Positions 60,060-64,000 of a stretch of DNA of 64,000 nucleotides are shown one piece after another (within the stretch, counting starts at the first letter, position 1; the number at the start of each line of letters is the position of its first letter). The notes below the pieces were generated by a model. That model was not told where the DNA came from and made no database searches. It saw only the letters and a list, made by a program, of their open reading frames with translations. Origin of the DNA: an uncultured Myxococcales bacterium (GTDB lineage: Bacteria; Myxococcota_A; UBA9042); contig CAIXGW010000214.1 in the NCBI GenBank assembly GCA_903919145.1, positions 4,534 through 68,533 on the forward strand, written 5' to 3'. Both the position numbers and the translations under genes were made by a program.

Positions 60060-61310
60060 TCAGTAGATCGACAGGCCCATCGAGAAGTCCGGCGTCCACT
60101 CCGAGGTTTGGGGGCCGACCAGCGCGCTGGAAAAGCCGTAGCGCAGGTAGAGAGCCAGGCGGGTGGTCCACTCTAGCTCGGCCAGGACGCCGGCCTGCAA
60201 GTAGAGGCGATTCTCGTCCAGCTCTGGCAGGTTGCCCTGGCCCGCCTTGACCCACTCATAGCCAGCGCCGCCGTAGCCGCCCAGGTGAAACCAGCCCAGG
60301 TCAATGGGCAGGGCTTGGGCTTCGCCGCCGGCGCGAATCGTCAGGTAATCGCCGCCTTCGGCAAAGCCGCGGCCAAACTGAAAGCGCCCGGCCAAGCCGG
60401 TCATCGACGATGGAAAGACGCCCAGGCCAATTTCGCCGGTGCCGCCGCTGTGGACTGCCGTGCCGGCCAGCTGGTTGCCGCCCACGCCACCGCCGACGTG
60501 GTAAGAAAAGCCCTGGCGATCCAGGGGGGCACGCCCGCGCAGCCAGGTGCCGGCGCCTTCTGGCCCTACGATCACGGCAGTGTCTTCGGGCCCGACATCG
60601 CCCTCTCTCAGTTCATCCAAGGCGACCAGGCGGTGGCCAGACGGCCCCACGACATGCAGCGGGTGGTGAGGGTGCACCGCCAGCCAGCCGTCATAGCGCG
60701 CCCCTTCTGAGCCGGCCAGGACGGCGCCGATCACCACGCCGGTGATGAGCACCAGCGCCAAGGTGGCGGCCAGACTCTCTCGATCGCTGGCGGCCTTGCC
60801 TGCCCCACTCAGCGCTGCGCCGGCGACCTTGGCACCACCCGAGCGATCGCCGCCGTCCAAGCTGCCAGCCGGGTACAGCCGAGCATCGCCGCCGGACGCC
60901 CACACGCCCATCCGATAGTGCGGCCCGTAGTAGGGGTCGCCATAGCCCTGGTAGTAAGAGGGCACGGTGTAGTACGGCGCGGCATACGGAACGGGCACCA
61001 CCACCGGCGGCCCCCCCTGTGGCGGCATTTGGGTCGGCGGGGCGGCCCACTGTGGAGCCGGCGGCAGGTCGTCCGCCGTGCCAAAGCGCTGTACGGCGCG
61101 AACCCGCTTGCCGCGCTCGTCCGGGGTGATCTTGGCCAGCCGGTCTATCTCGTCGCGCGGAATCTCAAAACTGTTTGAGAGACATGCGCTTTGCAGCACA
61201 GCCACTGCAGTCAGCAGCGCCACGGTAGACAAGCTGCGGCAGCGAGCCAGCGACCAGACCGTGACGCGGGGTGCTGCAGCGGGCGTGGATGAGTTAGGTT
61301 GGCGGTTCAC
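60060..61310 (-). CDS. hypothetical lipoprotein with C-terminal outer-membrane beta-barrel-like region
   Basis: GTG start with GGAGG RBS; lipobox QSAC; Pro/Tyr-rich linker; internal hydrophobic helix; alternating amphipathic strands ending MGLSIY. Confidence 0.7.
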   Translation of the reverse strand: MNRQPNSSTPAAAPRVTVWSLARCRSLSTVALLTAVAVLQSACLSNSFEIPRDEIDRLAKITPDERGKRVRAVQRFGTADDLPPAPQWAAPPTQMPPQGGPPVVVPVPYAAPYYTVPSYYQGYGDPYYGPHYRMGVWASGGDARLYPAGSLDGGDRSGGAKVAGAALSGAGKAASDRESLAATLALVLITGVVIGAVLAGSEGARYDGWLAVHPHHPLHVVGPSGHRLVALDELREGDVGPEDTAVIVGPEGAGTWLRGRAPLDRQGFSYHVGGGVGGNQLAGTAVHSGGTGEIGLGVFPSSMTGLAGRFQFGRGFAEGGDYLTIRAGGEAQALPIDLGWFHLGGYGGAGYEWVKAGQGNLPELDENRLYLQAGVLAELEWTTRLALYLRYGFSSALVGPQTSEWTPDFSMGLSIY

Positions 61311-61419
61311 GTTGTTCCTCCGGGTGGCACCTGCCCGGCGTCAAAACGATCCGGACCGCCCGGCGATTCACGGCAGCTGACACGAATTGCCGGCGAGGCC
61401 GCCCTTGCAGCCGGGCGGG

Positions 61420-61510
61420 TGACGCACTGCGTCAAGGACTGAGACAGCTGTCTCAGGTTGGCACAATGGCGATTCCACCCTCGCAGAGTCGACCCTCTCA
61501 AATTGAGACA
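61420..61510. promoter_or_regulatory. cluster of palindromic sites, probable bacterial enhancer-binding protein UAS
   Basis: TGACGCAcTGCGTCA (61420-61434), CTGAGACAGCTGTCTCAG (61439-61456) and TCTCAaatTGAGA (61496-61508), about 155-245 nt upstream of a sigma-54 start. Confidence 0.65.
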
Positions 61511-61617
61511 CTCGCGACGCAGCTGTGCCACAATTCGGGCCAAACCGGCGGCCATCGCGGGCATGCTGGGTGCCGCCGCGGCGCGCACAACCACACTGCA
61601 GACGCATACTGTTTGAT

Positions 61618-61653
61618 AATCAGCAGGTTGAAGATGTTGGCACGGGGTTTGCA
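61618..61653 (+). promoter_or_regulatory. IHF site plus sigma-54 (-24/-12) promoter
   Basis: AATCAGCAGGTTG matches IHF WATCAR-N4-TTR (61618-61630); TGGCACGGGGTTTGCA matches TGGCACG-N4-TTGC (GG 61639-61640, GC 61651-61652). Confidence 0.85.
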
Positions 61654-61663
61654 ACACTGACGC

Positions 61664-61905
61664 GCGGAGCGAGCGGAATCCCTGTAAATTCCTAAGTCCT
61701 TTCACAATCTCCTTTCACAACGCCGGTCCTCCCGGCATCTTTACGGGGTGTAGGTTTTCAATCGGCAAGGCCAGTCGCTCATTGTCAGGGAGTGAGCCAA
61801 GGTAAGCATCCGCTTCCGATAGAAACGCAACCGCACCCGCCCGTCTAGCTACCCTCGCCTACCACTTCGACGACCGTACGAAAGTCCGGTCGTCGAGTTG
61901 TTTTT
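61664..61905 (+). ncRNA. candidate sigma-54-dependent structured small RNA (~240 nt)
   Basis: Bounded by a sigma-54 promoter and an intrinsic terminator; no ATG-initiated ORF on the + strand; several stems and CU-rich single-stranded repeats. Confidence 0.65.
61866..61905 (+). terminator. intrinsic terminator
   Basis: Stem ttcgacgaccg/cggtcgtcgag capped by ac-GAAA-gt, followed by ttgttttt. Confidence 0.75.
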
Positions 61906-61989
61906 GGGGCAGTTCAACGCAGAATAGGCCTGCCGGCCGGCGCAGAGCGGCAGAAGCGCGCGCCCCTACAGCACTGCCCCCACCACCCA

Positions 61990-62035
61990 GCCCCCACTGC
62001 AGGGCCCCCACTGCAGAGCCCCCACTGCAGAGCCC
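61990..62035 (+). repeat. three 14-bp tandem repeats GCCCCCACTGCAG[G/A]
   Basis: Units at 61990, 62004 and 62018, immediately upstream of the NUDIX RBS (AGGAG). Confidence 0.8.
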
Positions 62036-62052
62036 AGCCCAGGAGCCTCGCC

Positions 62053-62634
62053 ATGCCCGATTCAGCAGCCCAGACTGGCCCAGACCCACGCGCAGCGATG
62101 CTGCTGGCCCAGCTGCAGGCCCATGCACCGGCGGATGAGCTGGAGGCCAGCCACCAGCGGGCCATGCTGGATCTGCTGGAAAAGGGTGGCCGGCCGCTGG
62201 ACCGCAACCACTGGCAGCCGGGGCACTTTACCGCGAGCTCGTTTGTGCTGTCGCCCGATGGCCAGAAGTTGTTGCTGATCTTTCATGGAAAACTGCACCG
62301 CTGGCTCCAGCCGGGCGGCCACGTGGATGCCCAGGACACCGACCTGCAAGCCGCGGCGCGCCGAGAAGTGCAGGAGGAAACCGGCCTTGGCGAGCTTGAG
62401 CTGCTGGCGCCCTGCCCCTTTGACCTGGACGTCCACGTGATTCCGGCGCGCAAGTCCGATCCCGAGCACTGGCACCTGGATGTGCGCTTCCTGTGGCGGG
62501 CCCAGCAGTGGCCGATCCAGGCGGGCGACGATGCACAGGGCTGCCAGTGGGTCGCGCCAGAGGACGTGGATCAGCTGGAATCCGACGAGTCGGTGCGGCG
62601 CGCCGTCAGAAAGCTAGGGCGCTTGCAGCGGTAG
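62053..62634 (+). CDS. NUDIX hydrolase
   Basis: GHFTAS, WLQPGGHVD...AARREVQEETG (Nudix box) and DLDVH.IP...EH.HLD motifs. Confidence 0.92.
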   Translation: MPDSAAQTGPDPRAAMLLAQLQAHAPADELEASHQRAMLDLLEKGGRPLDRNHWQPGHFTASSFVLSPDGQKLLLIFHGKLHRWLQPGGHVDAQDTDLQAAARREVQEETGLGELELLAPCPFDLDVHVIPARKSDPEHWHLDVRFLWRAQQWPIQAGDDAQGCQWVAPEDVDQLESDESVRRAVRKLGRLQR

Positions 62635-62885
62635 CTCGGTCTGCCTGGAGCTGCGGCGGACCTCGGCGCGATCTGGCGAGTTTCCCCTTGAATCTGCACA
62701 AGAACTGCTGTATAAGGCCGCGGCCGCGCGCGTTTGCCGACTGCAGCGCCGAATGCCGTTCCAGCTCCAGTGCCAGCTCCAGCTGCAGTTCCTGTACCAG
62801 TGCCGCCGCCCTGCGCGAAGAGCCGCCCGCCCCTCCCCTATGCAGTCGCCCCATCAGCCGCCCTATCAGCCGCCCAAGGAATGCC

Positions 62886-64000
62886 ATGCTTACCGTTGCC
62901 GATGTCTCCAAAACCTATGGCGGAAAGAAGCTCTTCATTGATGTGACGACCTCTTTTGCCCCGGGCAATCGCTACGGCCTGTCTGGCCCCAACGGTGCCG
63001 GCAAGTCGACGTTCATGAAGATCCTGGAAGGCATGCTGGAGCCCGACCGTGGCACCGTGTCGCGGCCGCGCAAGACTGCATTCCTTAAGCAAGACCACAG
63101 CTTGTTCAACGAGCATACGGCGCTGGATACCGTGATCATGGGCAACACCGCGCTGTGGCACGCCATGCAGGAGCAAAAGCGCATCTACGACTCGGGCGAT
63201 CACAGCGACGAAGCGGGCATGGAACTGGCCGAGCTGGAAGGGGTCATTGCCGAAGAGAACGGCTACATGGCAGAGAGCGAAGCCGAGGCCCTGCTGGACG
63301 GTCTGGGCATTCCGGCGGAGCTGCACCAAGCGAAGATGAGCGAACTGTCAGGCGGTTACAAGCTGCGGGTGCTGCTGGCCCAGGCCCTGTTTGGCGCCCC
63401 AGACTGCCTGCTGCTGGACGAGCCCACCAACCACTTGGACCTGGACTCGATTGAGTGGCTGGAGGAATTCCTGCTGGGCTATCAGGGCATTCTCATCGTC
63501 ATCTCTCACGATCGCCGCTTCTTGAACGACGTCTGCACCCACATCGCCGACATCGACTTTGAGACCATCATCACCTACCCGGGCAACTACGACGACATGG
63601 TCCGCACCAAAGCGGCGATGCGCGAGCGCCAGGCCCAGCAGAACAACGTGCGCGAGAAGAAGATCTCTGATCTCAAAGAGTTTATCTCTAAGTTCAGCGC
63701 CGGCACCCGGGCCTCTCAGGTCCAGTCTCGCAAGAAGCTGGTAGAGAAGCTGCAGCCCTCTGACATCAAGCGCTCCAACATTGCGCGACCGTTTATCCGC
63801 TTTGAGATCGCTAAAGAATCGGGAAAGCACGTGGTCGATTTTGAGCACCTGACCAAAGACTACGGCGAGTCGGCGATCGGCGGCGGCGGGCCGGTGTGGC
63901 AGGAGTTTCGCGCCCACGTCAACCGCGGCGAGCGCATTGGCATCATCGGCAAAGACGGCGCAGGCAAGACCACCCTGCTCAAGCTGCTGATCGGCGAGCT
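62886..64000 (+). CDS. ABC-F family ribosome-associated ATPase (YbiT-like), partial
   Basis: Not in the ORF track because it has no stop. MLTVADVSKTYGGKKLF...GPNGAGKSTFMKIL...LSGGYKLRVLLAQALF...LLDEPTNHLD...ISHDRRFLN, then a second Walker A GKDGAGKTT. Confidence 0.92.
   Translation, partial: MLTVADVSKTYGGKKLFIDVTTSFAPGNRYGLSGPNGAGKSTFMKILEGMLEPDRGTVSRPRKTAFLKQDHSLFNEHTALDTVIMGNTALWHAMQEQKRIYDSGDHSDEAGMELAELEGVIAEENGYMAESEAEALLDGLGIPAELHQAKMSELSGGYKLRVLLAQALFGAPDCLLLDEPTNHLDLDSIEWLEEFLLGYQGILIVISHDRRFLNDVCTHIADIDFETIITYPGNYDDMVRTKAAMRERQAQQNNVREKKISDLKEFISKFSAGTRASQVQSRKKLVEKLQPSDIKRSNIARPFIRFEIAKESGKHVVDFEHLTKDYGESAIGGGGPVWQEFRAHVNRGERIGIIGKDGAGKTTLLKLLIGE

Follow-up and report, generated by a model that had tools for sequence, protein, structure and literature searches.

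A candidate family of activator-dependent sigma-54 small RNAs with a pseudoknotted fold in uncultured myxobacteria

Towards the end of a 64,000-nt stretch of DNA from an uncultured Myxococcales bacterium (contig CAIXGW010000214.1, positions 4,534 to 68,533; hereafter the window, numbered from its first letter), palindromes, a consensus site for integration host factor (IHF), and a sigma-54 promoter precede about 240 nt with no plausible open reading frame (ORF), which raises the question of what this promoter transcribes. The comparative evidence supports well the conclusion that positions 61664-61905 of the + strand are an independent gene for a structured small RNA (sRNA) of about 240 nt, and that this RNA represents a new family of activator-dependent sigma-54 sRNAs. 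Its 5′ end is predicted from the geometry of the promoter, and its 3′ end is the U-tract of an intrinsic terminator. The source assembly comprises 6.97 Mb in 404 contigs with 66% G+C, and the window lies on the contig that we label C214.

The RNA does not appear to belong to a catalogued family. A reading of this DNA made earlier from its letters, without database searches (the sequence-only reading), had not recognised it as 6S, SRP, tmRNA, or RNase P, and this agrees with our cmscan search of 60500-64000 against Rfam 15 (4227 models), in which no match to the RNA was found at E up to 10. The lone match of that search was unrelated and fell on the minus strand at 62793-62883, beyond the RNA, with 18 bits where the cut-off is 38. 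We found no description of the RNA in the literature searched, where an earlier mention in a supplement remains possible.

Conservation, fold, and transcripts of the RNA

Homologues were found with searches of increasing sensitivity. With BLASTN, 13 of 61 relatives gave matches, which were limited to the terminator and the 90 nt nearest the promoter; 16 loci came from a strict DNA pattern run over 185,579 species genomes, and 8 metagenome loci from a looser one. Within the class, the looser pattern matched 26 of the 37 genomes of the uncultured family of the source organism (f1) and none of 70 genomes from 17 other families, and a reversed control gave no matches. Both patterns missed paralogues, including the one in the source genome, which only a covariance model (R1) built from 32 unique sequences recovered. 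R1 matches the window at 61662-61905 with 171 bits. Among 107 genomes of the class, it detects the RNA in 35, every one of which belongs to f1: the source genome and 34 of its 36 relatives, covering all 14 genera. The two f1 genomes with no match have a completeness of 69% and 67%. Two matches were found in most genomes of the family and one in each of the six genomes of genus g9. When the phylum was sampled, 12 of 12 f1 genomes were positive, and among the 138 genomes from elsewhere there were just two matches, both short and weak (31 and 22 bits). Virtually all genomes of this uncultured and mostly freshwater family of myxobacteria possess the RNA, as a rule twice, and the RNA family itself had not been catalogued before.

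Folded as a single sequence, the RNA is only mildly better than its shuffles (z = -2.06), so the structural claim rests on covariation. Constrained folds of each of 32 homologues gave one architecture, which runs from the 5′ strand of a helix P1 through the 5′ strand of a pseudoknot, a C/U-rich linker of about 35 nt, P2, P3 (containing P4 and usually P5), a C-rich linker, and the 3′ strand of P1 to the terminator; all of these elements are on the + strand. In P1, GCGAG (61669-61673) pairs with CUCGC (61854-61858) and closes the entire fold. A fixed-register search found this helix, with 3 to 10 bp, in 32 of 32 homologues, in forms such as GCGAG/CUCGC, GCGAA/UUCGC, GAGUGAG/CUCACUC, GGAGCAAG/CUUGCUCU, UGAGCGGA/UCCGCUCA, GUGGG/CCCAC, and GUGGCGA/UCGCCAC, and all 7 pairs counted had changed on both sides. 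The program RNA.duplexfold was also tried for P1, and it was replaced by the fixed-register search since it chose competing P3 pairings in some sequences.

The pseudoknot joins UCCCUG (61679-61684) to positions 61786-61791. Over the 63 sequences of the family, 377 of 378 cells are paired, four of the six pairs show compensatory change, and no change is one-sided, even though the pseudoknot is absent from the covariance model used for the alignment. The haplotypes are UCCCUA/UAGGGA (38 sequences), UCCCUG/CAGGGA (12), UUCCCA/UGGGAA (9), UCUCUA/UAGAGA (2), UUCCUA/UAGGAA (1), and UCCCUA/CAGGGA (1), the last with one mismatch. The sequence-only reading had instead placed a 5′ hairpin here (GGAAU/AUUCC), which can form in the window and is not conserved, and whose 3′ part belongs to the conserved pseudoknot. 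An alternative GGAA/UUCC pairing with motif 1 is weakly supported.

The interior of the molecule agrees better with what had been noticed beforehand, since the duplicated UCCUUUCACAA, a hairpin with a UCCUC loop, and a long stem with two inner hairpins are all present. The first hairpin is P2 (GCCGG-UCCUC-CCGGC, 61722-61736), whose two outer pairs covary; its loop had been put forward as a seed, an idea that we abandon because the loop sequence varies among homologues. The long stem (61745-65/61816-38) belongs to the P3 domain (61745-61838), a three-way junction with P4 and P5. RNAalifold, run on a subgroup of 16 sequences, independently predicted the outer stem of P4 as well as P3, and 27 of the 50 pairs show compensatory changes. 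P4 (61777-61797, stem 61777-81/61793-97) has four of six pairs changed on both sides and CA/UG closing pairs that are invariant in 63/63 sequences, and its loop carries the invariant UUGUCAGGGAG, which includes the 3′ strand of the pseudoknot (61786-61791). The small hairpin P5 (61803-61814) is found in most, not all, homologues and is weakly supported.

The transcript would end at an intrinsic terminator (61868-61905) with a stem CGACGACCG/CGGUCGUCG, an inner ACGAAAGU hairpin, and then UUGUUUUU; read by eye, the stem is 61868-61876/61887-61895 and the U-tract is 61898-61905. Eight of the nine outer stem pairs and both pairs of the inner hairpin have changed on both sides in the 63 sequences. 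A sigma-70 promoter and terminator scanner reported no promoter and missed this terminator, probably because the 10-nt region between the outer arms exceeds its loop limit of 3-8 nt. The lack of coding potential noted from the sequence is borne out, as no + strand ORF of at least 30 aa with a start codon exists in 61664-61905.

Counted over whole alignments, the predicted helices are strongly favoured. In a MAFFT alignment of 32 sequences, in which P1, the pseudoknot, the outer pairs of P2, P4, and the terminator were counted, 93.2% of cells are paired, against 36-44% with slid partners, and 22 of 32 pairs have changed on both sides. In the model alignment of 63 sequences, the corresponding values are 91.9%, 33-42%, and 23 of 26. 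None of 500 shuffles reached the covariation score in either case, although these counts are not probabilities since the sequences are related; P5 and the inner pairs of P2 were left out of the pair counts. Given the full MAFFT or model alignments, RNAalifold returned nothing beyond P1, P4, and the terminator, owing to misalignment in the variable middle; P3 required the 16-sequence subgroup. The predicted five helices and six-pair pseudoknot are thus backed by compensatory changes, a standard of support rarely reached for sRNAs, and the check by homologues and covariation that the sequence-only reading had called for, with the RNA in 35 of 107 class genomes, has come out in its favour.

Public sequencing runs also contain the RNA. 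Twenty runs are listed for the stretch, and seven of them are RNA libraries holding 6-12% of its sampled words. We examined four metatranscriptome runs from three studies, and each held exactly one contig, at least 99% identical to the window, with the ranges 61682-61871, 61687-61859, 61708-61858, and 61687-61849. The first of these (run X14) has a word depth of 67.4 and ends in an Illumina adapter; its end at 61871 lies in the 5′ arm of the terminator and possibly marks a reverse-transcription stop or a processing site. No contig covers 61300-61675 or 61911-62700, which includes the downstream NUDIX gene, although a lack of cover does not prove that these parts are silent. That the contigs of three studies keep to the RNA is as expected of a stable, abundant, terminated sRNA. 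The RNA has its own promoter and terminator while its neighbours vary, as a discrete transcript independent of them should, and the proposal of a discrete structured non-coding RNA finds support in both the covariation and the library contigs.

The second copy in the source genome (C176:37093-37321, 54 bits, E = 1e-10; about 2094-2322 of locus L073) is divergent, with the core GUAUCCCUAU ... CAUCGCUAGGGAGUGG. It has a weaker sigma-54 promoter (TTGGCCCGCTTCTTGCA) with the same palindromes upstream and sits between a DAGK-like gene and a ClpB-like AAA+ gene. Two further loci deserve mention. The first, in a record titled "uncultured Enterobacteriaceae bacterium" (L031), is typical of the family, has a sigma-54 promoter, and lies next to a ClpB-like gene; the sequence is listed under an f1 genome (G029), so the title is probably a mislabel. 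The second is a metagenome locus (L035/L037) with low GC (49%), the conserved core, a longer P2 region, and no recognisable sigma-54 promoter, and it suggests that the RNA family may extend beyond f1 under other control.

Promoter, enhancer sites, and a candidate activator

The sequence-only reading had described three palindromes, an IHF consensus, and a sigma-54 promoter, and we find each of them where it had been placed or within 1-2 bases. The promoter, TGGCACGGGGTTTGCA (61638-61653, + strand), has its GG at 61639-40 (-25/-24) and its GC at 61651-52 (-13/-12), from which a transcription start near 61664 is predicted. It is the sole match to TGGCACGNNNNTTGCW in the window, with 0 mismatches, and is an exact TGGCACG-N4-TTGCA. 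Shuffled windows average 1.7 matches to the sigma-54 consensus at up to one mismatch, so the single match proves little, and the real evidence is conservation: TGGC[AC][CT]R-N4/5-TTGC is kept in 60 of the 62 homologues with upstream sequence, 24-49 nt before the start of the alignment and in 57 of them at 24-35 nt. The two misses are L103 and the low-GC metagenome locus L035, and the remaining homologue (L128) is at a contig end.

Directly upstream of the -24 element, the IHF-consensus site AATCAGCAGGTTG (61618-61630, + strand) lies in an AT-rich zone. It is the only match to WATCARNNNNTTR in the 64-kb window, where 0.5 would be expected by chance and 39 of 100 shuffles contain at least one. 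Across the family, 6 of 60 homologues contain the exact consensus, where chance would give 0.12 and none of 200 shuffles gave more than 2, and the 90 nt before the -24 element are 45% AT in the homologues, compared with 35% further upstream.

As for the enhancers, or upstream activating sequences (UAS), many homologues have in common a 17-bp palindrome, TGTCTCA-N3-TGAGACA, found 100-260 bp upstream and often twice, about 50 bp apart. In the window, it is matched by UAS element 2, CCTCTCA-AAT-TGAGACA (61494-61510), which contains the TCTCAA/TTGAGA arms at 61496-61508. UAS element 1, CTGAGACAG/CTGTCTCAG (61439-61456), has GAGACA/GTCTC half-sites in swapped order, an arrangement that recurs in the closest relative and upstream of the paralogue in the source genome. 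The third palindrome, TGACGCA-N-TGCGTCA (61420-61434), is possibly the site of a second regulator and is not a family-wide enhancer motif. None of the three has an assigned strand. The suggestion that all three act as UAS therefore stands for the GAGACA-type palindrome, which is conserved, and not equally for every one of them. We also saw by eye GACGC/GCGTC palindromes, kin to TGACGCA-N-TGCGTCA, upstream of the RNA in a few relatives. With the promoter and the enhancer palindromes conserved and an AT-rich IHF-like zone present, the reading of the region as a UAS-IHF-(-24/-12) unit is upheld, and a predicted activator-dependent sigma-54 unit is supported.

Which protein might bind these palindromes? 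The source genome contains 39 strict sigma-54 promoter matches, and GAGACA-type sites lie upstream of only two, that of this RNA and one at C66:10419; with the weaker promoter of the C176 paralogue, three sigma-54 promoters of the genome carry such sites. The candidate activator is a 538-aa protein with REC, Sigma54_activat, and HTH_8 domains (C10:40419-42032). Its gene has no kinase gene as a neighbour and is preceded by a single palindrome, TGTCTCAAGATGAAACA, at a distance of about 80 bp from the annotated start and about 95 bp from the next in-frame ATG. Its orthologues are 48-84% identical and the next paralogues at most about 45%. The palindrome lies within about 110 bp of the start in 23 of 30 orthologues, plus one at -335, and in none of the 8 best homologues from five genomes of other families. 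Since the upstream regions of the sRNA and of the activator gene share the palindrome, this REC-AAA+-HTH protein is likely the cognate activator of the sRNA and autoregulated. Another regulator preceded by one palindrome, a REC-GerE protein encoded on contig C361, was set aside, as it has no sigma-54 interaction domain.

The other strict promoter suggests further members of the circuit. In C66:10100-10440 (locus L074), a strict sigma-54 promoter, preceded by five or six direct GAGACA repeats, drives a gene for a 460-aa OmpA-family outer-membrane protein, followed by a PAS-HisKA histidine kinase gene. Both genes probably share a regulon with the RNA, and the kinase could act as the sensor. The candidate regulon would thus include the OmpA-family protein and possibly the ClpB-like chaperone.

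Possible modes of action

The C/U-rich, G-poor strand at 61686-61721 (+ strand), unpaired in the constrained folds of the 32 homologues, is the candidate seed, and it holds the two UCCUUUCACAA motifs (61697-61707 and 61710-61720). A second C-rich, G-poor single strand, or tail, lies between P3 and P1 (61839-61853, + strand). Over the 63 sequences, the G content is 7.8% in the linker and 10.8% in the tail, compared with 25% overall and 34% in P3; the tail is 49% C, with CCCUUCC or CCUCC in most sequences. CUCCUUUC occurs twice in the linker of the source genus and of g9, lengthened to UCACCUCCUUU in some genomes. The 16S rRNA of two genomes of the source genus ends in ...GGAUCACCUCCUUU, and CUCCUUUC matches this 16S 3′ end.

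We propose that an orphan response regulator of the NtrC/LuxO type would bind the TGTCTCA-N3-TGAGACA palindromes 130-220 bp upstream and, probably assisted by DNA bending in the AT-rich IHF-like zone, would activate sigma-54 RNA polymerase, with transcription ending at the intrinsic terminator. P1 closes the resulting molecule, and the pseudoknot ties the strand after P1 to the P4 loop inside the three-way-junction domain, a scaffold that leaves the two G-poor, C/U-rich stretches single-stranded. These stretches, with their CUCCUUUC words, could pair in trans with purine-rich Shine-Dalgarno regions of mRNAs and lower the translation of the targets while the signal of the activator is present; in most f1 genomes, two paralogues would be under this common control. 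As an explanation of the whole, this combination of a sigma-54 sRNA, an orphan activator, and trans pairing with Shine-Dalgarno sequences is the best that we can offer, and we hold it, with modest confidence, to be probably right. Trans pairing is the simplest mechanism, a tentative proposal with close to an even chance.

Several observations weigh against this explanation. A same-strand gene lies within 80-720 nt downstream in 32 of the 63 loci, so read-through is possible. The RNA evidence consists of assembled contigs, in which ends, strand, and level are not given, and RNA libraries can hold DNA. The 63-sequence alignment was fitted to the modelled helices, while the 32-sequence one is plain MAFFT. 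Only about half of the 63 upstream regions contained a match to the pattern used to look for enhancers, which means that some sites are divergent or were missed, and the activator was assigned solely by the co-occurrence of a motif. The exact CUCCUUUC is confined to two genera; elsewhere, there are looser words (UCCUCAC, CCCUUCC), which remain complementary to GGAG-type sites. A scan of the source genome for targets, with 9-mer seeds and duplex energy, gave no convincing target at a ribosome-binding site. Finally, a multi-helix pseudoknotted fold of 240-260 nt is unusual for a base-pairing sRNA, and the pseudoknot core is much more conserved than the C/U-rich words, so it may be the functional centre and not a scaffold.

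The best non-self match of the target scan is a side observation that we do not use as evidence. It is an 18/19 complement of the RNA linker (GGAGATTGTGACAGGACT) in an intergenic region of contig C293, with a low chance expectation, about 45 nt beyond a short CRISPR-like array (C293:3640-3923, locus L133) with repeats of about 29 nt (GGTTCAGCCCCGCACACGCAGGGAACGG) and 32-nt spacers.

The conservation of the core leads directly to the first alternative, namely that the pseudoknot core (GAAUCCCUR with CAUCGUYAGGGAGUG) is itself the functional centre and binds and titrates a protein, for instance one recognising C/U-rich RNA or the 16S 3′ end, or binds a small ligand. The core is the most conserved part of the RNA, with CA/UG pairs and loop residues around the pseudoknot invariant in 63/63 sequences while the C/U-rich words drift, and both the size and the junction-plus-pseudoknot fold are closer to those of protein- or ligand-binding RNAs than to typical sRNAs made of a seed and a terminator. 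The word depth of 67.4 in one run would suit a titrating RNA, although contig depth is a poor measure. However, no protein partner is conserved beside the RNA gene, there is no consistent downstream gene of the kind that riboswitches control, and the strong G-depletion of the two long single strands is a trait of seed regions. We therefore consider this alternative somewhat unlikely.

A second possibility would make the RNA a leader in cis, in which the promoter serves the downstream gene (NUDIX here, ClpB-like at the paralogous locus) and the RNA with its terminator acts as an attenuator or sensor of read-through. The neighbourhood lends this idea some weight. Two syntenic loci recur, PPDK-RNA and DAGK-like-RNA-ClpB-like AAA+; PPDK is upstream in 17 of 63 loci, a same-strand NUDIX gene is downstream in 13 (within 200 nt in 11 of them), and a ClpB-like gene is downstream in 19, counts that include 24 loci with only 450 nt of flank per side, too short for full classification. 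In many loci, a same-strand gene lies within 80-250 nt, and the order DAGK-like, RNA, ClpB-like is kept across genera. In at least two loci of g9, however, the next gene is a convergent HAD-family gene; the terminator is strong and conserved with covariation; and the RNA-library contigs end before or at the terminator, none reaching NUDIX. No antiterminator pairing was seen by eye, without a systematic test. A role as a leader is thus improbable in our view.

In the window itself, the NUDIX gene begins at 62053, and three tandem copies of about 15 nt (CCCCCACTGCAGRGC) occupy 61982-62026, between the terminator and this start codon. The upstream neighbour is not PPDK; in its place is a divergent 416-aa ORF (60060-61310, minus strand) with no Pfam family, common only to the locus of the closest relative.

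It is also conceivable that the RNA, abundant and controlled by a signal, mimics the 16S 3′ end, and that its pseudoknotted scaffold holds open two to three anti-Shine-Dalgarno-like strands, which would compete genome-wide with ribosomes for Shine-Dalgarno sites or titrate a factor that recognises the 16S 3′ end; the core might itself sense a gating ligand or protein. This idea is a long shot, but if it were true, one sigma-54 activator would gain a global brake on translation initiation. Lastly, that no functional RNA exists here, only a promoter-like site arisen by chance together with a conserved intergenic region or a gene for a small protein, is hardly credible: one match to the sigma-54 or IHF consensus is no more than chance can give in 64 kb, and the single-sequence fold reaches only z = -2.06, but the family-wide conservation, the compensatory changes in six helices, indels that are not multiples of three, the lack of a + strand ORF of at least 30 aa with a start codon, the promoter kept in 60 of 62 homologues, and the RNA-library contigs all speak against it, and the covariation counts contradict it.

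Relation to known systems

To our knowledge, few sRNAs depend on sigma-54, and those that are known (Qrr, GlmY/Z, CrcZ, Pxr) are each central to a major decision circuit. Here, the predicted activator, its DNA motif, and the regulon candidates make the circuit testable without a cultured host, and the RNA family is ready for Rfam and for genome annotation. The elaborate pseudoknotted scaffold combined with strands resembling the 16S 3′ end is unusual and could point to a mode of seed presentation, or of titration, that is new.

The closest parallel in circuit design may be LuxO-Qrr of Vibrio, in which several paralogous sigma-54 sRNAs are controlled by one NtrC-type REC-AAA+-HTH regulator with a site at its own gene. 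Our system likewise has paralogous sigma-54 sRNAs and one candidate NtrC-type regulator, although the link between them comes here from motif co-occurrence. The Qrr RNAs are about 100 nt long, Hfq-dependent, built of stem-loops, gammaproteobacterial, and free of pseudoknots. The promoter layout, with sites for an enhancer-binding protein, a bending site, and a -24/-12 promoter before a non-coding RNA, is also that of GlmY/GlmZ, CrcZ/CrcY, and NrsZ, of which CrcZ is a sigma-54 RNA that acts by protein titration. These RNAs come from a different phylum, and there is no likeness in sequence or structure, as judged by the lack of an Rfam match. In terms of the proposed seeds, the nearest comparison is with RsaE/RoxS, CcsR, and sX13, each of which has several G-poor, unpaired C/U-rich motifs complementary to Shine-Dalgarno sequences. 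Their motifs are in hairpin loops and they depend on other sigma factors, whereas the strands described here are long linkers on a pseudoknotted scaffold.

Within the myxobacteria, the obvious comparison is with Pxr of Myxococcus xanthus, which the sequence-only reading had also considered and found different. According to its published description, Pxr is an sRNA of 108 nt with three stem-loops (SL1-SL3) and its own sigma-54 promoter, has tandem paralogues in some genera, is flanked by the sigma-54 response regulator gene nla19 and a gene for an NADH dehydrogenase, and is restricted to Cystobacterineae (PMC5568312). The two RNAs thus have in common the phylum and the type of promoter. Judged by these features, they differ in size, fold, synteny, and taxon: the RNA described here is 230-280 nt long, with a closing helix, a three-way junction, and a pseudoknot, follows a PPDK or DAGK-like gene (at this locus, the 416-aa ORF), and is found only in the uncultured family f1.

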